NCBI GenBank assembly: GCA_043815505.1
Contig: JBDRIV010000002.1
Span: forward strand, 11,484-75,483
Direction: 5' to 3'
From: a bacterium
GTDB lineage: Bacteria > Patescibacteriota > JABMPQ01 > JBDRIV01
Length of the DNA stretch: 64,000 bases
Below the pieces are notes generated by a model. It saw only the letters and a list, made by a program, of their open reading frames with translations, searched no databases and was not told where the DNA came from. Shown one piece after another: positions 874-39,974 of this stretch (position 1 is the stretch's first letter; each line of letters starts with the position of its first letter). Position numbers and translations under genes: made by a program.

Positions 874-907
874 TGGCGAACAGCCAAACCCTTGGGAGCT
901 TCTTCAC

Positions 908-944
<37 letters not shown>

Positions 945-1120
945 AGCGCCGTCTATGTGAACTATTGGGCGCTATAAGCCTGTTATCCCCGGAGTAACTT
1001 TTATCCGATGGTCTTCCGCGATCCTACGATCAAAACAATTTCTATTATTCGCCTATGTCCCTATAAAAATAGAAACATAAACGAAATAGAAAGAGTTCTT
1101 TACGGTCGGTTCTCTAAATT

Positions 1121-1151
<31 letters not shown>

Positions 1152-2299: not shown

Positions 2300-2319
2300 A
2301 CCCGACAAGGAATTTCGCT

Positions 2320-3033: not shown

Positions 3034-4324
3034 ACCATAGGACAGTTATAGTTACTGCCGGCGTTCATCCGCGCTTCAGAAGAGAGCTTGCACCCTCTTC
3101 ATTAACGTTCGGACACTGGCCAGGCATCAGCCCCTATACATCCTCTTACGAGTTAGCAGGGACCTATGTTTTTGGTAAACAGTCGCTTGAAGTCAGTCGC
3201 TGCGCCCTGAAGCAAAGTAGTAAACTACCCTTTTCCAGGGAGGCCTTATTCCAAAGTTACGGCCGCTGTTTTGCCGAGTTCCTTAACGAAGGTTCTTTCG
3301 ATCACCTTGGTATGCTAGTACCCACCTACCTGTGTTGGTTTACGGTACGGATCCGTTTTAACTAATCTTAGAGGTTTTTCTCGTCAGCTTGGATCAGTAG
3401 AATTGTCTAACTTTAGGAAAGACTTCTCACGTTCTTCGGATAAACGACTGCCCGGATTTACCAAAGCAATCTGCCTAATGAATATGAACGCCTATTACCA
3501 AAAGACGCTCTACCTACCATGCCGCGTTACCCCATCGAATTAAAACGAAGCGCCAGAATATTAACTGGCTTCCCATCATCTACCCCAGCACTACACTGGG
3601 CTCGACTTAGGACCGGCTAACCCTAGGATGATCAACATTGCCTAGGAAACCTGAGGTTTACGGTGTTCTGGGTTCTCACCAGAATTTTTGTTACTCATGC
3701 CAACATTCTCTCTTCTCTTCGCTCCATCTAATGGCTTCCGCCTAGACTTCACTGCGAAGAGAATGCTCCTCTACCACGTATATCAAAAGATATACATCCG
3801 TGTCTTCGGTAATATGCTTGAGCCCCGTTATATTTTCGGCGCGGAAACTCTCGACTAGTGAGCTGTTACGCACTCTTTAAATGAATGGCTGCTTCTAAGC
3901 CAACATCCTAGTTGTTTGAGAACTTCTACAACCTTTCCCACTGAGCATATATTTTGGGACCTTAGACGACGGTCTGGGCTGTTTCCCTTTCGACTATGAA
4001 GCTTAGCCCTCACAGTCTGACTCCCATGCAATAACTTTTCTGTATTCGGAGTTTGTTTGAAGGCAGTAGGATAAATCCATCTGTCTTCAACCAGTGCTCT
4101 ACCCCAGAAAAGATAAACATGAGGCTAGCCCTAAAGCTATTTCGAGGAGAACCAGCTATTTCCAGGTTCGGTTGGTTTTTCGCCCCTAACCACAGCTCAT
4201 CCGCTCGCGTTACACGACGAGTCGGTGCGGACCTCCACTTCGTATTACCGAAGCTTCATCCTGACCATGGCTAGCTCACCTGGTTTCGGGTCTGTTCCCT
4301 GAGACTTAGGGGGGTTAACCCCTG

Positions 4325-4425
4325 CCCAGCCCCAGTTTTATTGAACTCGGAATTTTGGAATTCGATAATGCTCAAATGATTCATTGAACATTAAAGATAT
4401 TGAGTTCAGCAAAACTGGGGCTAGG
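4325..4425. repeat. Family-A palindromic element (long form, ~100 bp) inserted in 23S domain II just 5' of GACCCGAAACC
   Basis: cccagccccagtttt ... gaactcgg ... ttgagttcagc ... aaaactggggctagg, with nested inverted repeats. Confidence 0.75.
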
Positions 4426-4513
4426 TCTCGCTTTCACTACGGCTCCGTCTAATAAAGACTTAGCCTTGCCACAGAGAATAACTCGTTGGCTCGTTCTGCA
4501 AAAAGCACGCGGT

Positions 4514-4622
4514 CACCCCGCTCCAGTTTTATAGAACTCGGAATTTAAAAATTCGATTATGCTAATAAGCAATTTATTAAGCTTAAAGCATTTTGAGTTC
4601 TGCAAAACAGGGGCGGGGCTCC
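4514..4622. repeat. Family-A palindromic element (long form), second copy inside 23S
   Basis: caccccgctccagtttt ... gaactcgg ... ttgagttctgc ... aaaacaggggcggggct; internal core similar to the 4325-4425 copy. Confidence 0.75.
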
Positions 4623-4676
4623 CACTCCATGTAAGTGTATGGTTTCAGATACTATTTCATCTCCCTTAACGGGATA

Positions 4677-4713
<37 letters not shown>

Positions 4714-5171
4714 ATCACAAAGAGTATTTAGTCTTGGGAGAGTAGTTCTCCCAGCTTCCTACGGAATTCCACTCACTCCGTAGTACTTAAGAATAAAACC
4801 GTAAAGTTATAACAGATTTTCGAATACAGGACTATTACCTTCTTTGGTGGACCTTTCCAGGTCACTTCTTCTAATCAATATTATTTCTTTACCTCTTGTT
4901 TGTAGCCAAGAACATTTTATCTTGCAACACCCTATTTACAACGCCTACAAGCTTGAACATAAATAAGGTTTGGACTGATCCCGTTTCGCTCGCCGCTACT
5001 AAGGGAATAATTAGCTTGTAGCAAATGGCATAGGGCAAATAGTAAACTATAAGCCATTAGCCATAAGCTATAAGCAGTTTGATTTCTTTTCCTCCGGTTA
5101 CTAAGATGTTTCAGTTCACCGGGTTGTCTTCCAACATCCTATGAATTCAGATGCGGATCCCAGCTCCACTT

Positions 5172-5435
5172 TTAGCAATCAATTTTGCTGTGTTCTAATC
5201 TCTTTTTTAATTCATGAATAGAACTCCCATGACTTTTAAGTCTTTTTTCTCTGACAATCGCATCTTTTTTGTTACGATATGCTTCAGCATAAACCAAAAT
5301 CCATTTTTCACTCTTTCTCTTTGTAGAATGAACTTGATTTTTATTATGTTCAGAGAATCTTTTCTTAAGATTTTTTGTAATTCCAACATAAAATCTTTTG
5401 TCCCCAGAATGTTGAAGTAAATAAACAATAAACAT
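5172..5435 (-). CDS. GIY-YIG nuclease-domain protein (UPF0213/YhbQ-like, 87 aa) embedded in a variable helix of the 23S 5' domain
   Basis: Motifs YLLQ...KRFYVGITKNLKKRFSEHN match the GIY-YIG signature. The ORF sits between the 23S blocks CCGAATGGGCAAACCCC and GGTGAACTGAAACATCT, where E. coli has only ~60 nt. Confidence 0.6.
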   Translation of the reverse strand: MFIVYLLQHSGDKRFYVGITKNLKKRFSEHNKNQVHSTKRKSEKWILVYAEAYRNKKDAIVREKRLKSHGSSIHELKKRLEHSKIDC

Positions 5436-6410
5436 TCTTTGGTATTAATGACTAAAAGTGGGGCTGGGGGGTTTGCCCATTCGGAGATCCTCGGATCAAG
5501 GGTTGTTTGACACCTCCCCGAGGCTTATCGCAGACTACCACGTCCTTCATCGGCTCTTTGTGTCTAGGCATTCACCATACACTCTTACCTCTTAGGTTGA
5601 TAAGATTAACTAGCTATATGTATTGATATTCAATTGTGTAAAGTCCTATCATTTGTTTTCACATTGTTGAAGTTTTTAAAACTGCAATTATCTGAAAGCA
5701 AATGGGCAACTAAAAAACCGCTCGTCGCGGCTCAATTTACACAAGGAATTATGCGTTCTAAAAGGCCGCCTAAATATGAGTAGTTAATGATCTTTTTTTC
5801 ATACGATTTTCCTTATATATTTAGATGTTTATCTGGTACTACGACTCTTTGTAGTACTGAGTTTATCGTATGAGTAGTGTACTTATAATTTAAAATGTTG
5901 TCAAGGAACAACTTTTACGCGGTGTGGACTTCCTGTGTAAAAGTGGAACATTTAGGCTTAGAATAAGAAAAAGATTAGTTTGACAATATGTTTATTTAAG
6001 CATATTCTTAATAGATTTGTGGTATTGTAATATTAGGAGGATTTGTACATTAACATTTTTGTTTGTTCTAAAAATGGGCGTAACTAATTGTGGAGGAATA
6101 AGGAAACGATAAAAAAGAAATGATATTTTCAAAAAAACAGAAAATACTACTTAGGAGAATGTTAATGAAAAAATCTACAGAATCAAATTCATTGAAGCCA
6201 GATATTATTTCAGGAGCAATTTGTAAACAACTTCCCCCAATCTGTTATGAAAGCGAAACCAAAAAGAGGGAAAGAGTAACCCAGTCTTTTAATATTCAAA
6301 GATGGTATAACGATCTTTTTGGTTTTCCCAAAGATGGTTCAATTTCAATTAGGCGGTAGAGATGTATTGTGGCTACAGTATCATGAAATTAAAACCAAAG
6401 GAGGTGAGTT

Positions 6411-6605
6411 TTGTCACAGGTCGCCGGAGTTTCAATATTTGATCTATCCATTCAACAATGTAAGGAGGAATTCTGTTCAGCATGTCTGCAATTGGCAGAG
6501 CAATCAGATATATTTCAAGCTGACATTTTAGCCAGGGCTTGCTCACTTTTCCATATTCAGGAGAAACCGAGGTGCGAAACTTGCCCCCGACAGCTATTTC
6601 TCTAA
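6411..6605 (+). CDS. Small Cys-rich hypothetical protein (64 aa, TTG start)
   Basis: SD aaggagg 8 nt upstream of TTG; Cys pairs CKEEFCSAC and CETCP; terminator-like hairpin aaaaatccc...gggattttt at ~6612-6652. Confidence 0.3.
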   Translation: MSQVAGVSIFDLSIQQCKEEFCSACLQLAEQSDIFQADILARACSLFHIQEKPRCETCPRQLFL

Positions 6606-6672
6606 CGAAATAAAAAATCCCAACTCGACTAAGCATTACGAGAAGGGATTTTTAAAAGATAACCACTACATA

Positions 6673-6882
6673 TTATTTTGATTCTTCGTCCAAACAATTA
6701 GGGCAGAAGTCTTGACCATCTTTGTTTTTCAGATGATCATTTATTGTGATTCGTTTACAACCATTACATCTTTTTCCCATACCGCGTATCAAAAGGGTAA
6801 GATTAATTGCACAACAATCATTATTCCATGGGTTGGCTCTAGATTGCAGTTTATCATTTGCAGTGGACTGGTTAAATGTCAT
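6673..6882 (-). CDS. Small HNH endonuclease-like protein (69 aa)
   Basis: CNGC ... NDHLKNKDG ... CPNC matches the HNH arrangement CxxC-DH-N-CxxC; lies in the rRNA spacer. Confidence 0.5.
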   Translation of the reverse strand: MTFNQSTANDKLQSRANPWNNDCCAINLTLLIRGMGKRCNGCKRITINDHLKNKDGQDFCPNCLDEESK

Positions 6883-6898
6883 TTTCTTTTCTCCAGGT

Positions 6899-7204
6899 TC
6901 AATAAGCTAATTTGGATCCTCTTTGTCTGCCAGTAGAGTATCCGACGTAATAATATGGGCTTTGGTTTTTCTTGGCTCGGGTTGAGCCGGGACCGTGTTG
7001 ATTGCCCTTTTTCCAATCCTTCAGGGCTTGTTCATATTCTTCTGGCGGGGCAAGTACGGGACATTTTTCACTAAGGTCTGGCTGGCCAGGAAATACATTG
7101 TCAACATGATTATTGTTTTTTCTTCCGCAATAACCGCATCTTGAATTATCGCGGCTGCCAAACATTCTTTCTCTTTCGTGTGTTGATAGTGGATCAAATA
7201 CCAT
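6899..7204 (-). CDS. Cys-containing hypothetical protein, possibly HNH-like (101 aa)
   Basis: CGYCGRKNNNHVDN...C motif pattern; weak. Confidence 0.3.
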   Translation of the reverse strand: MVFDPLSTHERERMFGSRDNSRCGYCGRKNNNHVDNVFPGQPDLSEKCPVLAPPEEYEQALKDWKKGNQHGPGSTRAKKNQSPYYYVGYSTGRQRGSKLAY

Positions 7205-7427
7205 TGTTCTTTTCTCCCAGGGTTTTATTGTAAAATGATCGGAGCGTGCTTAAGGTGCTAATATTATTTTCTAGTTTTAAGGTATCATAAAACATTTTAT
7301 GGGGGAAGTGATTTTAGTTATCCTACCAAAAAATCGCCCATTTGGCGATTACTTGTTTTTCGTTGTAAAAAATGGCATCTCGTGTGAGATGCCCGTGAAG
7401 TGAGGTGCAACTTGCAACTTTGCTCCC

Positions 7428-7571
7428 TTAATCTTTGCCGTAATAATTGCGATATGCATCTGCATCTGTGCCCCGAGGCCAACAGTTGAAGGATTTTTTC
7501 TTTCCCTTGTCAGGTAGAATAGATATTAGTACAACAACACCGACAAATCCTGCTAGCACCAAAAGTATCAT
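7428..7571 (-). CDS. Small membrane protein (47 aa); not in the ORF track
   Basis: SD ggaggg 6 nt upstream of ATG; hydrophobic MILLVLAGFVGVVVLISIL; terminator-like hairpin at ~7318-7350 on the minus strand. Confidence 0.3.
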   Translation of the reverse strand: MILLVLAGFVGVVVLISILPDKGKKKSFNCWPRGTDADAYRNYYGKD

Positions 7572-7789
7572 TTTTGTCCCTCCCATAAAAGAGTGCATAG
7601 CTTGATCTGATAAACCTCAATCAGATCCTAATTTATTAGTATCATAAATATTTTTTAAGTTAAAAAAGTATGATATTTTATTATACTTTCTATTAGCGAT
7701 TGTCTTGACAAAATAGTCATTAGGTAGTACAAAGAAGTGAGATAAATTGTCCTTGTAAAATGTATGCGAATCGCTACGAGAGGTGAATT

Positions 7790-8089
7790 ATGAAGAAGCT
7801 GTTTTCGTTCCTTTGGATTATCTGTTCAATAGTGGCAGTGTGGTTTGTTTGGGACTATTTCGGCTGGGTAGCCGGAGTAGTCGCTATTGTGGCGGTTCTA
7901 TTAATGAACAACATTTTGTTCGAAAGGAAAGAAAAAACTACGCCCAGGACAACAAGATTGACAAACGAAGACGATTATCCATCGTTTCCGTACGACGGAG
8001 GACCAGCAAGTTCTCACAACTCATCTACTTATGGTATGTATGATGGCGGTGATCAATCATCAGGACATCAAGATTACACAGCCGGTTGA
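7790..8089 (+). CDS. Small membrane protein with a low-complexity G/S/Y-rich tail
   Basis: N-terminal TM segments; candidate promoter TTGACA (7705-7710) - 17 nt - TACAAA; followed by a terminator. Confidence 0.45.
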   Translation: MKKLFSFLWIICSIVAVWFVWDYFGWVAGVVAIVAVLLMNNILFERKEKTTPRTTRLTNEDDYPSFPYDGGPASSHNSSTYGMYDGGDQSSGHQDYTAG

Positions 8090-8105
8090 ATAATTGATAT
8101 TTAGA

Positions 8106-8145
8106 CAAAACGGCCATCGGTTTTCCATCCGATGGCTTTTTTCTT
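8106..8145 (+). terminator. Rho-independent terminator
   Basis: ggccatcggttttccatccgatggcc hairpin followed by a T-run. Confidence 0.6.
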
Positions 8146-8443
8146 TCTGTAATTTTGGTGGACCGTAGGAGAGTCGAATCCGCCGGTCGGCAGACAGACC
8201 TTCTTTCAAAACAAATTTAAAATCTCTCTGGACCGCAGGGGGATCATCTACCCGCGACTACGTTTTGGGCGTGGCCAGCTTGCCCGCGGATGCGGGACGC
8301 AGCCAGGAGGAACTCACCTTTTAAACATTTTTCATGGACTCGAGGAGAATCTCACCTAGAGAGTGACCAGCCTTTGGGCGGGAACTCCTTTTTCTTTCTT
8401 TAAAATCTTATGGACCTGGCCGGATTCGAACCGGCTTTTATAA

Positions 8444-8776
8444 TTATTTTTCTAAATTTTCAACTTTTTCAAGGAATTTTTCCAACACTGTTTTTGCTAA
8501 CTCTCTATCTTTGCCGGCACTTGCTTCCATTTCTGCCCAATAACATTGATCTTGTAATTCAGGAGTTAAACTATCGTAGTCAATTTTTCCTGAACGCTCA
8601 AGAAGTTCTTTAATAGAAGCGTCAATTTTTTCAATATCTTCAGGCGAGAGATTGCTTGTTTCACTAAGACCATAATCTATTCTTCTTTGACGTGTCATTT
8701 CTCTTGCTTCTTCAGGAGTTGTAATTTTTCTTTCCAATTTTTCGGGATCTACTCCCATTTGTTCTGGTGATGTCAT
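8444..8776 (-). CDS. Acidic hypothetical protein (110 aa) located in the 16S-23S spacer
   Basis: ORF only; no clear SD. Confidence 0.3.
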   Translation of the reverse strand: MTSPEQMGVDPEKLERKITTPEEAREMTRQRRIDYGLSETSNLSPEDIEKIDASIKELLERSGKIDYDSLTPELQDQCYWAEMEASAGKDRELAKTVLEKFLEKVENLEK

Positions 8777-8929
8777 ATGTTGAATCTAAGTACTAAATCT
8801 TTTATTGACTAAGAGTCAGAATCGCTTACCCAGTCGTGCTGTGCGCGACTGTGGAAATCGCCTTATAAACATTTTAAACTCCTGGACTCAGAGCGAGAAT
8901 AAGAACTCCTTTTTAAAACATTTTGCCTC

Positions 8930-9003
8930 TGGACCCGGCCGGATTCGAACCGGCGGCCCCCTGCTTGCAAAGCAGGTGCTCTAGCCAACTGAGCTACGGG
9001 CCC
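8930..9003 (-). tRNA. tRNA-Ala(TGC)
   Basis: Reverse complement GGGCCCGTAGCTCAGTTGG...CTTTGCAAG...GGTTCGAATCC...CGGGTCCA has a G3:U70 pair and anticodon TGC. Confidence 0.9.
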
Positions 9004-9206
9004 AAAGGCAAAATGTTTTAAACCCCCTGGTCTTGCAAACAGTTTAATTTTCTATTGAAAATTAAACTGGGGGGTGCGTCTGCGGTTGAGCTACGAGCCC
9101 ATGGAAAAATGATTATAACTCCTGCAGTGTGACTTTGCTAAGGGCTGTTGGCAAATTGCAAATGGAAAACGTTAATTGCTATTAGCCACTCGCTATAAGC
9201 CAAATG

Positions 9207-9589: not shown

Positions 9590-9693
9590 AACTAATAATA
9601 CTTTATAAATTCCCCAGTGGGTGACCTGAAGATTTTCAGCCAGAGGCTGATCCGCCTTTGGCGGAGAACCTCGTCACTTAATACATCTCTCAG

Positions 9694-9767
9694 TGGGCGA
9701 TCGAGGATTTGAACCTCGGACCTCGTCATTATCAGTGACGCGCTCTAACCAACTGAGCTAATCGCCC
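9694..9767 (-). tRNA. tRNA-Ile(GAT)
   Basis: Reverse complement GGGCGATTAGCTCAGTTGGTTAGAGCGCGTCACTGATAATGACGAGGTCCGAGGTTCAAATCCTCGATCGCCCA. Confidence 0.9.
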
Positions 9768-9798
9768 ACTGAGAGATTTATCTTTTTATTATACATTA

Positions 9799-10146: not shown

Positions 10147-10205
10147 AACCCCGCCCCACCCCACTCCAGTTCTAATTAAAAACTGGGGCTGGGTGGAGCG
10201 GGGTT
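10147..10205. repeat. Family-A palindrome (short form) between the 16S 3' end and the tRNA-Ile paralog
   Basis: aaccccgccccaccccactccagttctaattaaaaactggggctgggtggagcggggtt. Confidence 0.7.
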
Positions 10206-10445: not shown

Positions 10446-11371
10446 ATCGAGATCCAAATTGGTCTCACACCACTGGGCAAACGGTTTTACCGTACCCTAG
10501 CGGTTCCACGAATATTATTCAGCTTGCGAATTTTATTTCGCAAAGAAACAATTTTTTTAAATCCAACATCGGTTAGATGCTGTTTGGATTTAATTAACAT
10601 AACTGCTTCACAAAATAATTCATAAACCAAACGCTTTTTAGCTCTCAACTTGTAACGGTTGAAGAAGGGAATTATTTTTTCACTCAAATCATTTATATTG
10701 CTCACTTTATATTTGACATGCGGATGCCATTTATAACGAGCATAATTTAAGCGATAGATATTTCCGCAACCAAAAGCATTTTTAATTTGGTTTAGGATTT
10801 CTTCATCATCGGCGCGGAGTTCTATTTCAAACTCTGCCCTAACTTCTTGTCGGCGTTTCAAGGTTTGATGTTTGCTGATACTAATACAGAAACATCCTTC
10901 CCCGTCAACGAAACCGACAATATATTCGGGATGAAGATTATTATTTTCGTGGTTCGGTCCTTTTCCCGCTCCAGTTTGTTTTAAACTGGGGCTGGATACT
11001 ACGACCTCTGCTGACTTCTTGTATTGCATCGTCATAATATTGCTATTATGTCTTAATTCTCGTGGGGTTTGCACCCCGAGGTTATTATACCTCAAAACAA
11101 GAATACAATACAAGATCTCCCTGGGTCACCTTATAAACCGTTCTTTCTCATCTCGGCTTTCCTGCACTTTAGTTTCCAAATTTACAGAAGACTTCCCTAC
11201 GTACACGAAAGGTCGTCGTTGAAACTAAAGCCTAAACGAAAGCTCAAGCTAAGAAATGCTACTTTTACCCTTGTTCCCAAACCTCACGATTTGGGACTGT
11301 AATTTCGCTTCCCAGTTTCTGCAAACTGGGGTGTGATTTTAACACACTGGTTTATAAAATTGCCAGGCGCA
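10446..11371 (-). mobile_element. 16S intron (group-I-like) inserted within CUUGUACAC / ACCGCCCGUCA (E. coli ~1395-1400)
   Basis: Exon matches stop at plus 11372 (gtgtacaag) and resume at plus 10445 (gacatgacgggcggt). Contains a LAGLIDADG ORF. The exact splice junction is ambiguous by +/-3 nt. Confidence 0.6.
10487..11113 (-). CDS. LAGLIDADG homing endonuclease, encoded in the 16S intron
   Basis: Motif IVGFVDGEGCFCISI in a 208-aa protein. Family-A palindrome cccgctccagtttgttttaaactggggctgg lies in-frame at 10958-10994 and encodes KQTGAGKG. Confidence 0.8.
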   Translation of the reverse strand: MYCILVLRYNNLGVQTPRELRHNSNIMTMQYKKSAEVVVSSPSLKQTGAGKGPNHENNNLHPEYIVGFVDGEGCFCISISKHQTLKRRQEVRAEFEIELRADDEEILNQIKNAFGCGNIYRLNYARYKWHPHVKYKVSNINDLSEKIIPFFNRYKLRAKKRLVYELFCEAVMLIKSKQHLTDVGFKKIVSLRNKIRKLNNIRGTARVR

Positions 11372-19962: not shown

Positions 19963-22584
19963 ATGCATTTAAAAAGATTGGAAATAACAGGATTTAAATC
20001 GTTTGCCGTCAAACGGGTTATTGAATTTGACCCTGGTTTTACGGCCATTGTTGGTCCTAATGGTTCTGGAAAAAGTAATATTGTGGATGCTATTCGTTGG
20101 GTGCTCGGTGAACAGTCTATGAAAACAATTCGTGGTAAAAAGAGTGAAGATGTAATATTTTCTGGATCCAAACAAAAAGGTCGACTCGGCATGGCTGAGG
20201 TGGTCATTACTTTTGATAATTCCGATGGTCAGCTGCCCATTGATTATCGTGAGGTAGAAATTATGCGTCGTGTTTTCCGTAATGGCGATTCCGATTATAT
20301 GTTAAACGGGAGCAAAGTTCGTTTAATGGACATTCAGGAACTGTTGGCCAAAGTCGGTTATGCCCAAAGAACTTATAGTATCATTAGTCAGGGCATGATT
20401 GATTCTATTTTGATGTCCGGTCAACAAGAAAGAAAAGAATTATTTGAAGAAGCCTCTGGTATTAAGCAGTATCAAATCAAGCGCAACAATTCCATTAATA
20501 AATTAGAAGCTACCAAAGAAAATTTAAAAAGAGTTGACGGTTTAATAAAAGAAATTGAACCACGTTTGCGAATGTTAAAGCGCCAAGCTGGTAAAGCTGC
20601 TAAACGTGATGAAATTGCGGCCGAACTAAAAGATCTTTCCTATCGTTATTACAGTTTTAATTGGCACACAATTTGTAAAGAATTAAATGGTCAAGAAAAA
20701 AGATCCGAAGAACTACATAGCCGGGAGCAAAACTTGCTAAAATCAATTGAGCGACTGAGCGGTAACGTTAAAATGCGGGAAAACACCGATACTCAAACTT
20801 CTAACTTACAATCAATAAAAGCTGAACTGCAAAGTTTGATTGATAATAAAAATCAGCTGAAAGAAAAATTGGCCATCACCGAAGGAAGGTTAGAAGTTGA
20901 ATCAGAAAGAGAGTTATCGGCTGATGACGTAGAGATTAAAAGACGAGTAGCTGATCACGAAAGAGATTTAGAACAATTACAGGAAAAACTTCAAAATCTT
21001 GAAAATGAAATCTTAAGTAAACAAAATGTTTTAACTGCAGCGGAAAGCAAAGCTATCAAACTGAACAGTTTATTGTCTGAAACAAGGCAAAAAATAGCTG
21101 AAATTACTGGCACTAATGGTGAGAAAGATGAAGCTACTATTAATAGTCTCAAAAGTAACTTTGCTAGTCTCGAAGAAGAATCAAATAATTTATTTGGTTT
21201 GATAAATAATTTTAGTTCCGACACCGACCTTCCCCAACTTAAAAGTCGGGCGGAAAGTTTTAAAAATTCTTTTTCCAGTTTTGCAGAAGGATTCAAAAAA
21301 ATAATCAAAAGGAACAACGGTCACAATTTGCAAGGTTTACAAGAGCAATTGCTAGATCTAGAAAAACATAAGGACTTAATTGCAGAGGAAATGCAGACAG
21401 CACGCGTGGTAATGGCCAGACTCGAAACTGAAAAAGGAATTTTGCATAACAATAAAAATAATATCGAAAAAGAATTAATAACTCTCAAAGAACATTTGGC
21501 GGGAGGAAACGATTCTAAAATTTCACTGGCCGCCAAAGAATTACGAGCAGAAAAAAATGAATTAACAGAAAAAATTTCTACTTTCAACAAAACCATAGCA
21601 GAAAAAGAAACTAGACTTCAAAAGTTGGAAGAAGAGCAAACCAGAAAACAAAGTCAGACATTGGAAATGGAGCAAATGTTGCGCGATCATCAAGATCAAT
21701 TAAATGCTCTTAAAGACGAGGTGCGCGAACTTGATATTAAAAAAGCTAGAGTAGAAACCAGACGCGACGCTTTGCAATTGGAAATCGATGAAGCTATAAT
21801 GCCAGATTCTTTAGAAAAACTTTTAGCGTCTTGGCAAAAAATGGCGGAAGAAGTGCCTCGCCACGATCGCGGTCACATGAAAGAAAGAATTCAGCATTTG
21901 CGCAAACAACACGCTGCCATTGGTGAAATAGACCCAAATGTTATTGAGGAATACAAAGAAGTTGATAAACGCTCCAGTTTTTTAATTGCTCAACATGAAG
22001 ATTTATCTTCAGCTTCATTATCTTTAAGAACTGTTATTAAAGAATTGGATCAAACCATTGCTCGCCAGTTTGAAAATGCCATCAAAAAAATCAACGAAGG
22101 TTTCCAAAAATATTTTGAAATATTATTTGGTGGCGGTAGTGCTAAAATCTTTAAACAAAAATCGGTAATCAGAAAAACTGAAGAAGAAAATTTAACAACG
22201 GAAGATAAACAAAAATTAGCTCATGAATATTATATTGAAATTAAAGCTTCACCACCGGGTAAGAAATTAAAAAATCTGTCTATGCTTTCTGGTGGTGAAA
22301 GAGCGCTGACTTCTGTGGCTTTGATTTTTGCTATTATTGCTTCAAATCCCACACCTTTTATTGTGTTGGATGAAGTTGACGCTGCCTTAGATGAAGCCAA
22401 CTCTCAGCGTTTTGGCAAGATTTTGGAATCAGTTTCTAAACAAACTCAATTTATTGCCATCACTCACAATCGTGAAACCATGAAAAAAGCCGGTATTCTT
22501 TATGGTGTAACTATGCAGGATGACGGTGTTTCTAAGATGATATCGGTTAAATTAGAAGAAATAGCCAAAGATAAAGTAAGTTAA
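19963..22584 (+). CDS. smc: SMC-like chromosome segregation ATPase, unusually short at 873 aa
   Basis: N-terminal Walker A GPNGSGKSN; long coiled coils; C-terminal signature LSGGERALTSVAL and Walker B FIVLDEVDAALD. Confidence 0.8.
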   Translation: MHLKRLEITGFKSFAVKRVIEFDPGFTAIVGPNGSGKSNIVDAIRWVLGEQSMKTIRGKKSEDVIFSGSKQKGRLGMAEVVITFDNSDGQLPIDYREVEIMRRVFRNGDSDYMLNGSKVRLMDIQELLAKVGYAQRTYSIISQGMIDSILMSGQQERKELFEEASGIKQYQIKRNNSINKLEATKENLKRVDGLIKEIEPRLRMLKRQAGKAAKRDEIAAELKDLSYRYYSFNWHTICKELNGQEKRSEELHSREQNLLKSIERLSGNVKMRENTDTQTSNLQSIKAELQSLIDNKNQLKEKLAITEGRLEVESERELSADDVEIKRRVADHERDLEQLQEKLQNLENEILSKQNVLTAAESKAIKLNSLLSETRQKIAEITGTNGEKDEATINSLKSNFASLEEESNNLFGLINNFSSDTDLPQLKSRAESFKNSFSSFAEGFKKIIKRNNGHNLQGLQEQLLDLEKHKDLIAEEMQTARVVMARLETEKGILHNNKNNIEKELITLKEHLAGGNDSKISLAAKELRAEKNELTEKISTFNKTIAEKETRLQKLEEEQTRKQSQTLEMEQMLRDHQDQLNALKDEVRELDIKKARVETRRDALQLEIDEAIMPDSLEKLLASWQKMAEEVPRHDRGHMKERIQHLRKQHAAIGEIDPNVIEEYKEVDKRSSFLIAQHEDLSSASLSLRTVIKELDQTIARQFENAIKKINEGFQKYFEILFGGGSAKIFKQKSVIRKTEEENLTTEDKQKLAHEYYIEIKASPPGKKLKNLSMLSGGERALTSVALIFAIIASNPTPFIVLDEVDAALDEANSQRFGKILESVSKQTQFIAITHNRETMKKAGILYGVTMQDDGVSKMISVKLEEIAKDKVS

Positions 22585-22592
22585 ACAATTGA

Positions 22593-22705
22593 CCCGATAG
22601 TACAACCGAACTTAGATTTTAAAAAATTTATTTATTAAAAAGCTAAAATATATAAAATATTAAAAATAATAATAATCATCATCATCAGTTGTACTACCGA
22701 GTTGA
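22593..22705. repeat. Family-C inverted-repeat element (cccgatagtacaac ... gttgtactaccgag), abutting the rpsP promoter
   Basis: 13-14-nt inverted repeats flank ~80 bp of AT-rich DNA and are directly followed by TTGACA. Confidence 0.7.
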
Positions 22706-22729
22706 CATCGCTAGCTAAATAAGTATAAT
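22702..22729 (+). promoter_or_regulatory. Sigma-70-type promoter for rpsP: TTGACA - 16 nt - TATAAT
   Basis: ttgacatcgctagctaaataagtataat. Confidence 0.55.
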
Positions 22730-22766
22730 TAAGGCTTAAGTAAAGTATTAAATAATTTTAAGAAAA

Positions 22767-23288
22767 ATGCTGACAATTAGATTGACAAGAATTGGCCGCA
22801 AGAATTCCCCTGCCTATCGCGTGGTAGTAGCAGAACACAAGCGCGCCGTCCAAGGAAAAATAATTGAAATTCTAGGGCAAATGAATCCTAAAACTGATCC
22901 CGCAACTTTTAATGTAAATGAAGAACGGGTTAATTATTGGTTGTCTGAAGGTGCTCATCCTTCCAGTGTAGTTCGTGATTATCTTGTAAAAAAAGGAATT
23001 GCTAAAAAGGCAGATCTAGCTCAGCCGATTCATAAAAAGAAACTTCGACCAAAGAAAAAGAAGGGCGAAGAAGGTGATGAAAAAGCCAGTGAAAAGCCAG
23101 AAGATCCTTCGGCAAGCTCAGGACAAGAAAAAAGGGAAGAAGTTAAAGAAGAACCGAAAGCAGATGCTCCTAAGGAAGATGGTTCGACAAGCTCACCACA
23201 AGAAAAGGTTGAAGAAAAGAAAGAAGAACCCAAGGAAGAGAAAAAAGAGGAGCCTAAAGAAGTGAAAGAAGAACCTAAAAAAGAATAG
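22767..23288 (+). CDS. rpsP: 30S ribosomal protein S16 with a ~90-aa Lys/Glu-rich C-terminal extension
   Basis: MLTIRLTRIGRKNSPAYRVVV matches S16; the tail is a KKEEPK-type repeat. Confidence 0.9.
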   Translation: MLTIRLTRIGRKNSPAYRVVVAEHKRAVQGKIIEILGQMNPKTDPATFNVNEERVNYWLSEGAHPSSVVRDYLVKKGIAKKADLAQPIHKKKLRPKKKKGEEGDEKASEKPEDPSASSGQEKREEVKEEPKADAPKEDGSTSSPQEKVEEKKEEPKEEKKEEPKEVKEEPKKE

Positions 23289-23295
23289 ATTTCAA

Positions 23296-23397
23296 TCCCC
23301 GCTTCAGTTTTTTAGAACTCGACACAATATAGTTATGTAATTCTAGAAGTAATTTTAAACTTAAAGAATTTGAGTTCAACAAAACTGAGGCGGGGTT
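23296..23397. repeat. Family-A palindromic element (long form) downstream of rpsP; likely acts as a terminator
   Basis: atccccgcttcagttttt ... gaactcgac ... ttgagttcaac ... aaaactgaggcggggttttt. Confidence 0.75.
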
Positions 23398-23403
23398 TTT
23401 GTT

Positions 23404-23512
23404 GACCTGGTAGTACAATTTTCTATAATAAGTATCTTAAAATTAATCTTGTTCAAATTTCATATAAAAGTCCCAAGAACAAAACAATGGAATTTGTACT
23501 ACCAGGTTGACT
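23404..23512. repeat. Family-C inverted-repeat element (gacctggtagtacaa ... ttgtactaccaggttgac)
   Basis: Inverted repeats flank an AT-rich core; TTGACT at the distal end. Confidence 0.7.
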
Positions 23513-23638
23513 AAAATTAGCATTTTTGCTATGGTAATCTCGATACTCAAGTACTTAAAAGACGCGGAACTTGGTCGAACAAAACGCAATTTTGAGGAAA
23601 GATATCAGCTATCAGTTTAAGTATTAAGATAAACTTGT

Positions 23639-23974
23639 ATGGCAGAATCATTTGACGATCAACAATTTGTTGAATTCGTTGTAAAGTCTATTGTCGATCA
23701 CCCCGACAAAGTCAAAACCGAACGTGTTATTGACGAAATGGGCGTTCTAATTACCCTTACTCTTGATCCAGAAGACATGGGTCAGGTAATCGGACGTCAA
23801 GGTGCAACTGCAAAATCAATTAGAACTCTATTGAAAGTAGTTGGCGCAAAAAATAACGCTCGTGTTAACCTGAAGATCAACGAACCTGAAGGTAGTACTC
23901 GTGGCAGAGACAGACGAGAAAGTCCTGCTCCCACCGAAGAAGACACTGACGTTGTAGACGATCTTAAACTATAA
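23639..23974 (+). CDS. KH-domain RNA-binding protein (KhpA/YlqC-like) with a C-terminal extension
   Basis: GQVIGRQGATAKSIR matches the KH GXXG motif; position between rpsP and trmD. Confidence 0.75.
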   Translation: MAESFDDQQFVEFVVKSIVDHPDKVKTERVIDEMGVLITLTLDPEDMGQVIGRQGATAKSIRTLLKVVGAKNNARVNLKINEPEGSTRGRDRRESPAPTEEDTDVVDDLKL

Positions 23975-23985
23975 TTAGTTTAGAA

Positions 23986-24018
23986 AATATACTCCGCCCT
24001 TTAAAAGGGCGGAGTTTT
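23986..24018 (+). terminator. Rho-independent terminator
   Basis: ctccgccctttaaaagggcggag hairpin followed by a T-run. Confidence 0.6.
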
Positions 24019-24038
24019 GTTTTATAATCAAATTACTT

Positions 24039-24725
24039 ATGCAAATAGATATTCTTACACTTTTTCCAGGCGTAGTTTCTCCTTATTTGGAAGCAAGTCT
24101 TTTACAAAAAGCTATTGCGGCTGAAAAAGTTACCATCAATGTTATAAATATTAGAGACTGGGCTAAAGATAAACACCATACCACGGACGACACGCCTTAT
24201 GGAGGTGGTCCGGGCATGGTTTTAAAAGTCGAACCAATTTTTGCCGCCCTGAAAAGTATCGGCGCTATTGAAATTGAAAAAGAAAACCCTTTAGTTATTA
24301 AACCGCGTCCCCAAAATGAAAAAATTATTATGCTCTCACCCGGTGGTAAAATGTTTGATCAAAAAATGGGTGCTAATCTTTCTAAATTAAATAGAATAAC
24401 TTTACTCTGCGGACGTTATGAGGGTTTTGATGATAGAATAAAATTGTTTATTGATGCCGAAGTTTCGGTGGGAAATTTTGTTTTAACTGGTGGCGAACTT
24501 CCCGCTTTGATTATTACCGATGTTGTTACTAGGTTTTTACCTGGTGTGGTGGGAAATGAAGAATCAATTAAAAATGACACTTTCTTTCAAGATGAAAATT
24601 ATGTAAAACATCCTCAGTATACTAAACCAGAAGAATTTATGGGAATGAAAATTCCCGAGGTATTAATTTCTGGTAATCATCAAGCTATAGAAAAGTGGAG
24701 AAAAAGTAATTCTACAAACAAATGA
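24039..24725 (+). CDS. trmD: tRNA (guanine37-N1)-methyltransferase
   Basis: TrmD SPOUT fold motifs; DTPYGGGPGMV; rpsP-KH-trmD synteny. Confidence 0.9.
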   Translation: MQIDILTLFPGVVSPYLEASLLQKAIAAEKVTINVINIRDWAKDKHHTTDDTPYGGGPGMVLKVEPIFAALKSIGAIEIEKENPLVIKPRPQNEKIIMLSPGGKMFDQKMGANLSKLNRITLLCGRYEGFDDRIKLFIDAEVSVGNFVLTGGELPALIITDVVTRFLPGVVGNEESIKNDTFFQDENYVKHPQYTKPEEFMGMKIPEVLISGNHQAIEKWRKSNSTNK

Positions 24726-24865
24726 AAGAAAAAGTAAAAAAATCAGGTAATATATTTTATGGAATAATAAAATTTATAATTGGCGCTTTAGCTGTAGTTG
24801 GAATTGTAATTATGGCAGTTTTGCAAATAAAAAGAAAATCTAACGGCAAAAAGCGTAAAACTTGA
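24722..24865 (+). CDS. Small membrane protein (47 aa); its start overlaps the trmD stop (ATGA); not in the ORF track
   Basis: MKEKVKKSGNIFYGIIKFIIGALAVVGIVIMAVLQIKRKSNGKKRKT. Confidence 0.3.
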   Translation: MKEKVKKSGNIFYGIIKFIIGALAVVGIVIMAVLQIKRKSNGKKRKT

Positions 24866-25117
24866 AATATTTTTTAAGTATGGTATTCTAAGGCCAAGTC
24901 CAATATTTGGACAACACGAATAAGAATTTCGAAAGCTAGATTGAGATTCATATAATTATTAATTCGTGTACAGCAAGACAAGGTTTTATCTGATGGCTAC
25001 GACTTAATTTCGACTTTGAAATAAATGATTCTCATTTATTTAATCACTCATAACAAGATACAAACCATCTAGGCGTTACTAAAACGCTAAGTTTTTCTGT
25101 ACACGGGAGTTACTACA

Positions 25118-26638
25118 ATGACACAAATAATTTTTCCCGTTGCCGCTTTAATTGTGGGCACGCTGGCGGGCTATTTTCTCCGCCGCACAATTGCTTTACA
25201 AAAACAGAACTCAGCTGAAGCTGAGGTTACTCGGCGCTTAAATGAAGCTAAAAACAAAGAAAAAGAAATCTTGATTGTTGCCAAAGATAAGGCCATTCAA
25301 GTTGTTGATGCTGCCAAAAATGAGGAACAAGAAAGGCGTCAGCAAATAATTCAGTCAGAAGAAAGAATTGCCAAGCGCGAAGAAAGCATTGATCGTAAAT
25401 ATGATGACATTGAAAGAAAGCGCTCAGGTCTTGAACAAGAGGAGAAACAGCAACAAGAAATAAAACAAGAATTAAAACGTATTAGAAAAAAGCAAATTTT
25501 AACCTTGGAAAAAGTTGCTAGTTTGTCGCGTGAGAAAGCCAAAGATGTGTTGCTGGACATGGTGGAGAAAGACGTAGCCGACCGTTTAGTTAAGAGAATT
25601 CAAAAACTAGAAAAAGCCGCTGACGAAAAATTTGAGGAAAAGGCACAGTGGATTACAGCCCTGGCCATTCAGCGTTATTCACAAAACCAAGCCTCTGAAA
25701 TTACCACCACCACCGTTAGTCTCCCCTCTGATGAAATGAAAGGTAGAATTATTGGTAAAGAAGGACGCAACATTAAACGTATTGAAGAACTAACTGGTGT
25801 AGAAATTGTAGTTGATGATACTCCCGAAGCGATTGTAATTTCTGGCTTCAACCCTATTCGCAGACACGTAGCAAAAAAAGCTATTGAACAATTGGTAGTG
25901 GACGGACGCATTCATCCCGCTCGCATTGAAGAATCGGTAGAAAAAGCTAAACAAGAAATCGCTAAGGATATTCGCGAAACTGGTGAGCAAGTAGTTTATG
26001 ATTTGGGCATTACTGATTTTGATCCGAAATTGGTGCAATTAATTGGTCGTTTGAAATTCCGTTACAGTTACGGCCAAAATGTTATGAAACATTCTATTGA
26101 GGTAGCTAACATTTCTGCCATTTTAGCCGAAGAGTTAGGCGCTAATGTTCAAGTGGCTAAGCGCGGTGGTATTTTGCATGATATTGGAAAAGCAGTTGAT
26201 GCTGAAATTGAAGGAACTCACATTGAAATTGGAAAAAATATCTTAAAGAAGTTTGGTGTTTCTGAAGAAATTATTCAAGCCATGGAGGCTCATCACGAAG
26301 ATGTTCCTTGTGCAACAGTGGAAGCTATGATCGTTGATGCCGCCGATTCTATTTCTGGTTCCCGTCCTGGTGCTAGAAAAGATACTTACGAAAATTACAT
26401 TAAAAGATTGGAAGAGCTTGAAGGTATTGCTAATAATTTTGCTGGCATTGATAAGTCTTATGCTATCCAGGCTGGTCGTGAAGTTCGCGTTTTTGTTAAG
26501 CCGGAAGAAATTGACGATCTTGGTTCTATTAAACTGGCCAATGAAATTGCTGATAAAATTGAACAAGAATTAAAATATCCTGGTGAAATTAAGGTTAATG
26601 TAATTAGAGAAACCAGAGCCGTAGAATACGCTAAATAA
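25118..26638 (+). CDS. rny: Ribonuclease Y
   Basis: N-terminal TM, coiled coil, KH domain (IIGKEGRNIKRIEELTGV) and HD domain (HDIGK). Confidence 0.9.
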   Translation: MTQIIFPVAALIVGTLAGYFLRRTIALQKQNSAEAEVTRRLNEAKNKEKEILIVAKDKAIQVVDAAKNEEQERRQQIIQSEERIAKREESIDRKYDDIERKRSGLEQEEKQQQEIKQELKRIRKKQILTLEKVASLSREKAKDVLLDMVEKDVADRLVKRIQKLEKAADEKFEEKAQWITALAIQRYSQNQASEITTTTVSLPSDEMKGRIIGKEGRNIKRIEELTGVEIVVDDTPEAIVISGFNPIRRHVAKKAIEQLVVDGRIHPARIEESVEKAKQEIAKDIRETGEQVVYDLGITDFDPKLVQLIGRLKFRYSYGQNVMKHSIEVANISAILAEELGANVQVAKRGGILHDIGKAVDAEIEGTHIEIGKNILKKFGVSEEIIQAMEAHHEDVPCATVEAMIVDAADSISGSRPGARKDTYENYIKRLEELEGIANNFAGIDKSYAIQAGREVRVFVKPEEIDDLGSIKLANEIADKIEQELKYPGEIKVNVIRETRAVEYAK

Positions 26639-26642
26639 AATT

Positions 26643-27467
26643 ATGAAAATTCTATTCCTTGGAGATATAATGGGTCGCGTTGGTCGCGAAGCCATAAAAC
26701 ACTTTGTACCCCAGCTAAAAGAAAAACACAAAGCTGATTTGGTAATTGCCAATGTTGAAAATTTAGCGCACGGCAAAAGTGCGACTGAAAAAACTTTGCA
26801 AGAAATTAAGGAAGCCGGCGTAGAAGTTTTTACATCTGGCAATCATGTTTTCAAAAAACAAGATGTTTATGAATTACTGGAAAAAGAGGATATTGTAATT
26901 CCCGCCAATTATCCCGAAGGAGTATCTGGAAAAAGATATTTAGTAAAAGAAATTGGTGCTTATCGTCTTTTTATTGCCAATCTAATGGGTAGAGTTTTTA
27001 TTAAAGAAGATTTCACTTGCCCCTTTATCAAGATGGACGAACTTTTAGAGGATGCTAAAAAAGAAGGTGCCAATATAATTTTGGTAGATCTGCACGCTGA
27101 AGCTTCAAGTGAAAAAATGGCCTTTTTTCTAGAATTCAGAAAAAAGGTAGGAGCTATCTTAGGTACTCATACCCATGTTGCTTCGCAGGATTTTGCCGTA
27201 TACGATGGTTGTGCTTTTGTTTCTGATGTTGGCATGGTAGGAGGCTTCCCTAGTGTGATTGGAGTTAATGAAGAAAATGTGATTAAAGAATTTAGAAATC
27301 AAACTCCCCAGAAATTTGAAATGGCTGATACCAAATGGGCAGAATTCAATGCTGTGCTTATAGATTTTGATGGTACTTCCGGTCGCGCCAAGAAAATAGA
27401 AAAAATTAGAGAATTTATTGATATTGAAAACGGTAAAAATAGTAAAAAAACACCAAAAATAGAATAA
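26643..27467 (+). CDS. ymdB: YmdB-like metallophosphoesterase (2',3'-cyclic-nucleotide phosphodiesterase family)
   Basis: MKILFLGDIMGRVGREA ... GNHVF; conserved rny-ymdB pairing. Confidence 0.8.
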   Translation: MKILFLGDIMGRVGREAIKHFVPQLKEKHKADLVIANVENLAHGKSATEKTLQEIKEAGVEVFTSGNHVFKKQDVYELLEKEDIVIPANYPEGVSGKRYLVKEIGAYRLFIANLMGRVFIKEDFTCPFIKMDELLEDAKKEGANIILVDLHAEASSEKMAFFLEFRKKVGAILGTHTHVASQDFAVYDGCAFVSDVGMVGGFPSVIGVNEENVIKEFRNQTPQKFEMADTKWAEFNAVLIDFDGTSGRAKKIEKIREFIDIENGKNSKKTPKIE

Positions 27468-27564
27468 TAAGTTATCCCCTTAAAATACACAAAAACACTT
27501 GATTGGAGAGGCATATTTGCCTATAATACATATACAAATAATCACCGAAGGGAGGTGAAACAAA

Positions 27565-27843
27565 ATGACCAAACAAGAAGTAATTGAAAACCTTGCTTCT
27601 AAAGCAGGCGTAACTAAGAAAGTTGCCGATGATGTTTTAGATGCCTTTGTTAATGTGGTAACAGAAACTCTTCAGAAAGATGAAAAAGTATCAGTAACCG
27701 GTTTTGGTACTTATAGCGTTTCTCATAGAGCCGCCCGTACCGGTGTAAATCCCCAAAATCCAACACAGAAAATCCAAATTCCAGCTATGAAAGTTCCTAA
27801 ATTTACAGCTGGCAAAACTTTGAAAGATTCTATTAAAAACTAA
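27565..27843 (+). CDS. hup: DNA-binding protein HU
   Basis: HU signature with the GFGTF-like arm GFGTYSVSHRAARTGVNPQNP. Confidence 0.9.
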   Translation: MTKQEVIENLASKAGVTKKVADDVLDAFVNVVTETLQKDEKVSVTGFGTYSVSHRAARTGVNPQNPTQKIQIPAMKVPKFTAGKTLKDSIKN

Positions 27844-27912
27844 ATAATTCCCCGGTATCTTTTTCTGCGATCATAATATGATCATAGTAAATGGTATCGG
27901 GGATTTATAATA

Positions 27913-28018
27913 TTTTAATTGATCCGGTAGTACAATTTGATAAATAAATTTCAGAGACTTTGTAATTATTTAACAACCTATTGAAATACTAAAGCCATAT
28001 ATTCTGGTTGTACTACTG
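27913..28018. repeat. Family-C inverted-repeat element (atccggtagtacaa ... ttgtactactggattgaca)
   Basis: Inverted repeats flank an AT-rich core; lies between convergent hup and the pil operon. Confidence 0.7.
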
Positions 28019-28107
28019 GATTGACAAAATATTTTTTGCTAGTAAAATACGAAAGCTGGGTCGAAATTCTCACAACCCTCCTTGTGAATTTGTTTCGCCC
28101 AGCTTTT

Positions 28108-28404
28108 TTACTTACTTAAAAATGGATTGGCGGAAGAAATGTTTTCAAAACTGGTTTCAGTTTTTGATTCCGCTATTTTTGATTGACTATTTTTTACATC
28201 TTCAGAAATTACTATAGAAGTTTGTCCCATGTAAGTAGTTGCTCCATTTGTAGCATTGCCAGTTAACCAATATTCAAAAGCACCAATAATTAAAATGATC
28301 AGCAAAGCTGCTAAAAAAGCAAAGAAAGCAGCTTGTCGCCAAATTGTTTGAGATAAGTTACCAATAAATTTTGGCATTTTAAATTCCATATTTTTGTTAG
28401 CCAT
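28108..28404 (-). CDS. Membrane-anchored hypothetical protein; last gene of the pil operon
   Basis: One TM segment; ORF overlaps pilO. Confidence 0.4.
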   Translation of the reverse strand: MANKNMEFKMPKFIGNLSQTIWRQAAFFAFLAALLIILIIGAFEYWLTGNATNGATTYMGQTSIVISEDVKNSQSKIAESKTETSFENISSANPFLSK

Positions 28405-33710: not shown

Positions 33711-33814
33711 AACCCCGCTCCAGTTTTATTTAACTCAGAATATTGTTCATTAATGTTGGGAAATTTGTTATAAAAAACATTAATGATTTGAGTTCAATAG
33801 AACTGGAGCGGGGC
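33711..33814. repeat. Family-A palindromic element (long form) upstream of pilB
   Basis: aaccccgctccagtttt ... aactcagaa ... ttgagttcaat ... aactggagcggggcg. Confidence 0.75.
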
Positions 33815-39938: not shown

Positions 39939-39974
39939 CTCCCCAGCTCCAGTTTTGCGAAAACTGGGGCTGAG
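39939..39974. repeat. Family-A palindrome (short form)
   Basis: ccccagctccagttttgcgaaaactggggctgag. Confidence 0.7.

Follow-up and report, generated by a model that had tools for sequence, protein, structure and literature searches.

The six short repeats in the stretch of patescibacterial DNA analysed here (64,000 nucleotides, hereafter the window) are very likely copies of one non-autonomous, MITE-like element that is found across the Patescibacteria, has CCCGGTAGTACAA(C) ends, makes a 4-bp target duplication and lies at start codons and in -35 boxes. The family itself is undescribed and its kind, the bacterial MITE, is known; its distribution in the CPR is very wide and its placement is statistically strong. 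As a target the element prefers YATR, which is overwhelmingly the T/C-ATG of a genuine start codon, and a second class of targets is TTGA, which in several cases forms the first four bases of a -35 hexamer. Terminal inverted repeats, direct repeats in the flanks, dispersed copies, empty orthologous sites and the occurrence of the same ends in many genomes bear out the suggestion, made in an earlier note on this DNA, that the repeats are MITEs.

The genes of the window are those usual in Patescibacteria (RNase Y with YmdB, CdaA with YbbR, type IV pilus genes, PFOR and S16-KhpA-TrmD). Its TrmD is identical to MFH1508582.1, and the next homologues, which are about 50% identical, belong to Magasanikbacteria and other Patescibacteria. 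With a span of 4.8 kb, compared with a 2.9-kb model, the 23S rRNA gene contains large insertions, more than 3 kb separate it from the tRNA-Ala gene, and a group II intron fragment lies between the 16S and tRNA-Ile genes. Inverted repeats of 21-26 nt with 92-96% complementarity bracket the tRNA-Ala, tRNA-Ile and tRNA-Lys genes; they extend well past the acceptor stems and may form long processing stems. A second, unrelated palindromic repeat family with the arm CCCCGCYCCAGTTTT(ATTGAACTC) is represented by 21 arms with up to two mismatches, compared with 0.15 expected, mostly as long terminator-like hairpins past genes and in some cases within the 23S insertions. The coordinates of these features and of the elements are collected in Table 1.

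Table 1. Elements, promoter-like sites and other features of the window (positions count from the first letter of the window)
Feature	Position	Strand	Arms, flanks or structure	Context	Basis or score
c1	22593-22701	.	arms CCCGATAGTACAA / TTGTACTACCGAG; TTGA 22589-22592 and 22702-22705	8 nt past the smc stop codon (22582-22584), 65 nt upstream of rpsP	sequence, motif matches
c2	23406-23506	.	arms CCTGGTAGTACAA / TTGTACTACCAGG; TTGA 23402-23405 and 23507-23510		
c3	27923-28020	.	arms TCCGGTAGTACAA / TTGTACTACTGGA; TTGA 27919-27922 and 28021-28024	between hup (HU) and a convergent ORF	
c4	42921-43020	.	arms CCCAGTAGTACAA / TTGTACTACCGGG; CTT 42918-42920 and 43021-43023	starts 11 nt past the stop codon of an RNase H-like exonuclease gene	
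c5	50801-50866	.	short variant, 40-bp interior, perfect 14-bp arms; ATG 50798-50800 and 50867-50869	in tandem with c6	
c6	50870-50974	.	arms CCCAGTAGTACAA / TTGTCCTACTGAG; ATG 50867-50869 and 50975-50977	in tandem with c5, before the 537-codon ORF 50975-52588	
rpsP promoter-like site	22702..22729	+	TTGACA-16-TATAAT	S16 gene 22767-23288	12/12, best match in 22400-28400
c2 left-junction promoter-like site	23402-23429		TTGACC-16-TATAAT	reads into the element	11/12
c2 right-junction promoter-like site	23507..23535	+	TTGACT-17-TATGGT, extended -10 TG	upstream of a KhpA-like gene (23639-23974)	9/12
c3 right-junction promoter-like site	28021..28048	+	TTGACA-16-TAAAAT	followed by hairpin and U-run 28055-28112	11/12
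Degenerate arm pair	58975-59060		4 + 2 mismatches, 86 bp	within the radA coding sequence	
23S rRNA gene	783-5598				
Spacer between tRNA-Ala and 23S	5599-8929				
Group II intron fragment	10957-11055		D1-D4	between 16S and tRNA-Ile	
tRNA-bracketing inverted repeats	8912-9022, 9681-9781, 40941-41044			tRNA-Ala, tRNA-Ile, tRNA-Lys	
Second palindromic family	23294-23398, 33713-33813, 45031-45153, 50639-50749, 39942-39974, 10147-10205				
Second palindromic family	2406-2437, 4325-4618, 5159-5468			within the span of the 23S rRNA gene	

Six elements in the window share only their termini

The 13-mer CCNGGTAGTACAA, counted with up to two mismatches, occurs 16 times in the window compared with 2.5 +/- 1.7 times in shuffled sequence, and none of 100 shuffles reached 16. 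Inverted pairs of the 13-mer spaced 45-110 bp apart number eight in the window and 0.13 in shuffles. These eight are the six copies c1-c6, which are bounded by the inverted 13-mer and measure 66-109 bp each, one overlap artefact and one doubtful pair. The doubtful pair is degenerate, lies within radA and is probably due to chance. With 16 versus 2.5 13-mers and 8 versus 0.13 pairs, the six copies of AT-rich DNA enclosed by 13-nt terminal inverted repeats that the earlier note had listed are real; the positions it gave for c4, c5 and c6 could be kept, and the end of c1 as well as the ends of c2 and c3 (23404-23512 and 27913-28018 in the note) had to be corrected.

Alignment of the six copies (alignment A1) shows that the termini alone are conserved. 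The interiors contain 12-30% G+C, and their mutual similarity equals the background expected for random AT-rich DNA. The arms of c2 carry a symmetric T:A variant at position 3. We found no decayed copies in the window when scanning for inverted pairs. As had been noted before, c5 and c6 stand in tandem. They have an ATG between them, and ATG occurs three times across the tandem.

Three copies sit in the -35 boxes of existing promoters

c1, c2 and c3 sit in the -35 boxes of three pre-existing promoters, those of rpsP, of the KhpA-like gene and of a small hairpin RNA or terminator. In all three, the right flank repeat of the element doubles as the opening TTGA of the promoter-like site at the right junction. 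In a consensus scan of positions 22400-28400, the three best sigma-70-like matches (22702, 23402 and 28021) all fell on element junctions. The -10 boxes and the remainder of the -35 hexamers lie in the flanking DNA, outside the elements, whereas TTGA, the beginning of the hexamer, stands on either side of the element and is therefore the duplicated target. Since the -35 TTGA is a target copy and the -10 box belongs to the flank, the elements sit in promoters that already existed and bring none with them.

The junctions of a distal repeat with a -35 and a -10 box described earlier are thus real, including the rpsP promoter with its full match. The idea that the MITEs deliver promoters is not supported, because TTGA stands on both sides of the element and family members have no outward sigma-70-like promoters: promoter scores toward the gene (4.92) and away from it (4.96) are the same. 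Outside the window, TTGA is the gene-proximal flank in the loci L095 and L106, and in the orthologous loci L106 and L073 the right end of the element adjoins a conserved TTGATT-17-TAAAAT promoter.

The promoter-like site at the right junction of c3 is directly followed by a 49-nt hairpin with a U-run (28021-28112 for site and hairpin together), which folds with -23.5 kcal/mol (z = -7.2) and has CCCUCCU within its loop. The predicted fold might suit a tiny sRNA, or else a bidirectional terminator placed between hup and the convergent ORF.

The family extends across Patescibacteria

Scans of genome and metagenome contigs yielded about 45 further elements with full CCCGGTAGTACAA(C) ends outside the window. 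The genome contigs were scanned with the pattern GTAGTACAA-N60-90-TTGTACTACY, which returned 65 loci, 16 of them with full CCCGGTAGTACAA(C)...(G)TTGTACTACCGGG ends; the metagenome scan added about 35 more elements, and the pooled set comprises about 50 non-redundant copies. The hosts are Saccharibacteria, Parcubacteria/Paceibacterota, Minisyncoccia, Sungbacteria and unclassified MAGs, and one of the genome-contig elements comes from a bin labelled Gammaproteobacteria. Other matches of the scan were set aside, namely coding sequence of a thiolase and of nuoL and palindromic terminators from Wolbachia, Fimbriimonadales and Bacteroidales.

Across the family, conservation is near maximal over YATR and the first 13-14 nt of the element and then drops to an information content of about zero. 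Terminal positions 1-13 are 92-100% conserved, and position 14 is C in 73% and T in 21% of cases. Most elements are 97-120 bp long, with a median of 102 and two short derivatives (overall range 66-120). The interiors have G+C contents between 0.12 and 0.61, which seem to match the base composition of the respective locus. In the counted family members, all arms with at most one mismatch have a partner about 100 bp away.

Neither around the family members nor in the window did we find a long, gene-carrying version or a long arm pair, and a Pfam search of 30 window ORFs gave no transposase domain. Viral contigs were searched for an autonomous copy as well; all 85 matches are single arms expected by chance, and a 3271-bp "pair" in L166, L174 and L196 lies within phage coding sequence. 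In all copies examined, the reading frame opened by the duplicated ATG meets stop codons, leaving no coding capacity. Rfam 15 gave no match to the elements, whether the whole window was searched at the gathering score or positions 22400-28400 at E<=1, and a literature search returned no publication matching these ends, CPR MITEs or start-codon transposons.

Two loci carry clustered copies. In L008 (1078-1317), two tandem copies that are 80% identical precede a 16S rRNA gene; a few tens of bases separate them from its 5' end, which places them in the promoter or leader region of the rRNA. L078 (1659-2583) holds three elements within 1 kb, of which two, and possibly the third, are at start codons of successive co-directional small genes; the intercistronic spacers of this operon consist almost wholly of element. 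The scans also brought up a family from hypersaline metagenomes (L068, L079 with two copies, L081, L084, L127, L072/L074/L076 and L091/L117) with a length of 111-117 bp, the ends CAGGGTAGTACAATAGTTC and perfect 8-bp target duplications, which we set aside as unrelated. It has the 10-mer GGTAGTACAA in common with the CPR element; the shared core may be due to chance, as the search selected for it, or may reflect related transposases.

Direct flanking repeats and empty sites

The flanks of the elements are direct repeats, which in the window read TTGA (c1, c2, c3), ATG (c5, c6) or CTT (c4); the earlier note had overlooked the copy in front of the left arm. In the family, identical 4-mers flank both sides in 34 of 52 copies. 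The pairs are direct and not inverted: CATA/CATA was found 14 times and TATG/TATG 11 times, whereas CATA/TATG never occurred. Other matched pairs are TTGA, TATA, CTTA, TTTG, CAAG and CATG, and the two tandem copies in L008 have different duplications on one contig (CTTA and TTTG). Some copies have flanks with a 1-nt mismatch or no matching flanks at all (L073). The earlier note had thought of a 2-bp target-site duplication; a duplication is present but measures 4 bp, or 3 bp in the three window copies c4, c5 and c6. In the case of c4 only 3 bp are repeated, as a 4-bp repeat would read GCTT on one side and CTTA on the other.

The efp gene of Sungbacteria provides both filled and empty sites. 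We gathered homologues by a protein search with EF-P and then compared their contigs. In L092 and L123 the element is inserted at C/ATG, giving ...aacCATG-element-CATGctc..., and in L219, L220 and L221 the site is uninterrupted and contains a single CATG, ...aacCATGctt... (alignment A6). The empty sites with their single CATG prove insertion and the 4-bp duplication. The efp coding sequence of L092 is 85% identical to that of the empty L219 and 80% identical to that of the filled L123, and the elements of L092 and L123 have interiors that do not align. Because L092 is nearer to the empty than to the filled homologue and the two interiors are unalignable, it is most likely that the same efp start codon was hit twice independently or that the element was precisely lost once.

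Two further orthologous pairs were compared. The elements of L107 and L128 occupy different TATGs, about 15 nt from each other, in the 5' region of the same gene. L106 and L073 have the right junction in common, their arms are identical at 13 of 13 positions, and about 45% of the interior columns match (by eye). Interiors that are 70-92% identical recur at loci with unrelated flanks, whose similarity is at background level.

Placement on start codons

Of 51 copies, 25 have the ATG of their duplication, 1 nt off the end of the element, as the start of an ORF of at least 80 codons, and most of the remaining copies lie up to 30 nt upstream of an ORF. Start-codon copies make up 25 of the 36 YATR-flanked copies, compared with an expectation of 14% (p = 6e-14), which is the share of predicted start codons among the non-coding YATR sites of the same loci. 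Pfam supports that these are genuine N-termini, as the SMC_N, RecG wedge, RuvB_N and starch synthase (GlgA) models begin in the first residues, and the EF-P start MLSINDL matches homologues. The starts of S12 (MPTINQL), TrpRS, Pth and a HIT protein also read as canonical N-termini, judged by their residues. Genes with an insertion at the start include the essential rpsL, trpS, efp, smc and atpB. This placement runs counter to the general trend: in bacteria, insertion sequences within intergenic DNA tend to avoid the upstream side of genes (Plague, 2010; PMC2942039).

The tandem in the window gives an example. ATG 50975, the right flank repeat of c6, is the start codon of a 537-codon ORF encoding a membrane protein; it is the sole ATG, GTG or TTG within the first 44 codons, and the nearest upstream in-frame stop (50951) falls within c6. 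The earlier note had proposed that the ATGCCC junction of the element supplies this start codon, which is right as to the outcome, but the ATG is a target-site copy of the gene's own start. Generally, with the proximal copy of the duplicated target a complete start codon or -35 box again stands against the element end, and the gene thereby keeps its signal.

The distal ATG opens a short ORF (MPGST...) that ends at variable places. We considered N-terminally extended EF-P homologues as possible read-through products of in-frame elements and rejected this, as the extensions lack the MPGST start and L222 has no element. Leaderless transcription, with a -10 box 6-8 nt before the duplicated ATG, was likewise rejected for the family, in which TAnnnT has no consistent position; the c5 site, read by eye as TTGAAA-17-CATTAT-6-ATG, may fit a leaderless pattern. 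In the Sungbacteria efp loci (L092, L123, L219, L220 and L221), a conserved TTGCAR-N17-TAnnCT lies about 35 nt before the distal CATG, and the leader of about 35 nt contains no Shine-Dalgarno motif. As the elements have no outward promoters, start-codon copies would have to be transcribed from the upstream promoter.

The association with start codons and -35 boxes may reflect targeting, a longer survival of copies that lie between essential signals, or an acquired function.

Conserved arms and alternative readings

Folding of ten copies revealed the terminal stem as the only shared structure, with energies 3-8 sd below those of shuffled sequences and no conserved inner fold in these ten. The stem of 13-22 bp recurs, is perfect and free of bulges, and the arm has no internal stem of its own. 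In the alignment of both ends (A5), the arms co-vary: for four of five measures, which include percentage paired, pairs and cells changed on both sides and a covariation score, none of 500 column shuffles reached the observed value, and for the fifth, further pair types, one of 500 did. The conserved core contains five double changes that preserve pairing, three of them in the window (c2 position 3, c3 position 1 and c6 position 4), and at positions 14-18, where many pair types occur, about half of the copies are paired. As a sign of constraint this covariation is suggestive only, and subfamily relatedness can inflate the counts. The identity of the L106 and L073 arms next to interiors that match at about 45% is unlike what is expected of purely selfish, neutrally decaying copies. 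Together, the identical arms, the lack of decayed copies in the window and ends that stay invariant in lineages of widely differing base composition would fit continued recognition by a conserved protein or selection for a hairpin. An interior acting as guide or antisense to its own flanks was rejected: the longest shared words average 8.1 nt with the own flanks and 7.5 nt with those of other copies.

One alternative is that the 13-mers are operators of a conserved CPR DNA-binding protein, possibly a domesticated transposase, that binds both arms, loops about 75 bp and regulates the adjacent promoter or gene, which we regard as conceivable and rather unlikely overall. The ends are invariant across lineages while the interiors range from 12% to 61% G+C, and the spacing of the arms is tight, with the great part of the elements at 97-120 bp. 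In c1-c3 and in L106/L073 the element adjoins a good promoter, with the proximal arm at about -36 to -49, and the L106/L073 arms and the window without decayed copies count in the same direction. However, direct-repeat flanks and empty sites mark arrival by insertion, two of the three orthologous comparisons look like independent insertions and not like conserved sites, half of the copies are at start codons and not at promoter positions, and no candidate protein was identified. Given the target duplications and empty sites, the repeats cannot have originated as operators for DNA looping. The paired operators that the earlier note offered as its other explanation are unlikely as the primary origin without mobility, and possible as a second role added to a mobile element.

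A further alternative, which we judge quite unlikely, is that an RNA leader hairpin is under selection, the 14-bp stem directly 5' of the AUG acting as a stabiliser against RNase J/Y, as an RNase III site or as a device by which ribosomes select one of the two duplicated AUGs. It would draw on transcription of the start-codon copies from upstream, as at efp with its TTGCAR-17-TAnnCT, on the terminal stem shared by the ten folded copies, on the covariation of the arms and on the tolerance of essential genes for the insertion. Against it, the stem is constant in sequence as well as paired, which speaks for recognition by a protein; c1-c3 lie upstream of a -35 box, outside the transcript of that promoter, and the element has no Rfam family.

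It is very doubtful that the repeats are REPIN/RAYT-like or IS200/IS605-type (HUH) elements, in which a single-strand hairpin would be moved by a single-copy domesticated Y1 transposase and the flank would be the cleavage tetranucleotide. The symmetric hairpin of about 100 nt, whose ends are conserved and whose middle is free to vary, the co-varying arms, the lack of an IS-like autonomous copy with the same ends around family members and the persistence of the family over deep lineages would all suit such an element, as would the GTAG inside the conserved end, which may resemble REP recognition. But the arm is not itself a palindrome, as a REP unit is, and the flanking tetranucleotide varies between copies (TATG, CATG, TATA, TTGA, CTTA, TTTG, CAAG) while being equal on both sides. 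Flanks that are variable between copies yet equal within a copy are explained directly by a staggered cut and not by a guide-dependent HUH site. HUH elements of the IS200/IS605 type are not known to make a target duplication.

That the elements are invertible promoter switches, with the arms as recombinase sites and an interior that flips to turn the downstream gene on or off, is extremely improbable: identical inverted repeats do stand directly upstream of many genes and c2 has a strong inward-reading promoter-like site at its left junction, but the flanks are direct repeats and sites are found empty, the interiors have no conserved or orientation-biased promoter and, at 72-87 bp, are very short for inversion, and no recombinase is encoded by the window ORFs scanned beside the copies.

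Comparison with known elements

Correia elements (CREE/NEMIS) of Neisseria, RUP, ERIC, MITEAba12 and Nezha are non-coding elements of about 100-150 bp with TIRs and a short target duplication. Such MITEs are intergenic and near genes, can be co-transcribed as hairpins, and their target junctions can form promoter elements. The CPR element resembles them in size, lack of coding capacity, TIRs, target duplication and gene-adjacent dispersal. It differs in that its ends have another sequence and are only 13-14 bp long, its duplication is 4 bp (YATR or TTGA) and not TA, it spans several class-level lineages and not one genus, its interiors are essentially unconserved, its copies lie exactly on start codons or -35 boxes, and it has no known parent IS.

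Ends of the form CC(C)...(G)GG, TIRs of about 13 bp, a 4-bp duplication with target preference and possibly precise loss are traits of IS1380/piggyBac-type DDE elements that the CPR element may share. The likeness is one of anatomy only, as the CPR ends have no similarity beyond CCC and the target is not TTAA. With REPINs and their RAYT the element shares a symmetric hairpin unit of about 100 nt, conserved inverted ends around a poorly conserved spacer, correlated end changes and long persistence without IS-like autonomous copies. In contrast to REPINs, its arms are not palindromic REP units and its folds show the inter-arm stem only, it has a variable 4-bp target duplication and empty sites, and it is found at start codons and promoters rather than generally in extragenic DNA.

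PATE, which derives from IS200/IS605, has sub-terminal hairpins at each end, no TIRs, no duplication and a fixed target tetranucleotide on one side only, whereas the CPR ends are mutual inverted repeats and each copy has the same flank at its two ends, which differs from copy to copy. Integron attC sites consist of R''/L''...L'/R' boxes with RYYYAAC and GTTRRRY cores and extrahelical bases, in cassettes next to intI. The CPR ACAAC/GTTGT departs from the core consensus at one position per arm, its stems are perfect without bulges, and its neighbours are housekeeping genes. In behaviour, the element is analogous to the eukaryotic retrotransposon Ty3, in that insertion positions match gene-expression landmarks to the nucleotide; it differs from Ty3 in being a bacterial DNA element without an integrase.

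Proposed mechanism and significance

For the MITE-like element, we propose that a transposase acting in trans, probably of the DDE type, cuts the target with a 4-nt stagger and that its specificity for the ends has been kept across deeply diverged CPR lineages. Start-codon copies would be co-transcribed from the upstream promoter, so as to place a hairpin with a 14-bp stem directly 5' of the AUG. A more far-reaching reading, which is speculative and which we think unlikely, is that the element is actively steered to start codons and to the first four -35 bases, and not just tolerated there, that its invariant ends are retained as binding sites of a conserved protein acting in trans, and that the population of copies brings genes for rRNA, ribosomal proteins, translation factors and DNA repair under one control layer or gives them a common mRNA-leader hairpin.

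CPR genomes are tiny and densely packed, and an element of about 100 bp sits precisely at start codons of essential genes and in -35 boxes, where the signal duplicated at insertion lets the gene keep its start codon or -35 box. Were targeting the cause of the association, bacteria would offer an example of a transposon that reads gene-expression landmarks. If the association reflects retention, uncultivated organisms without Shine-Dalgarno-type leaders would initiate translation beside a stable hairpin. In practical terms, the 13-mer pair is a simple marker for annotating true start codons and promoters in CPR metagenome bins, and it warns gene callers against extending ORFs into the element. 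Should the reading of directed targeting and retained binding be true, the copies would form a common control layer, or a shared leader hairpin, in organisms that have very few regulators.
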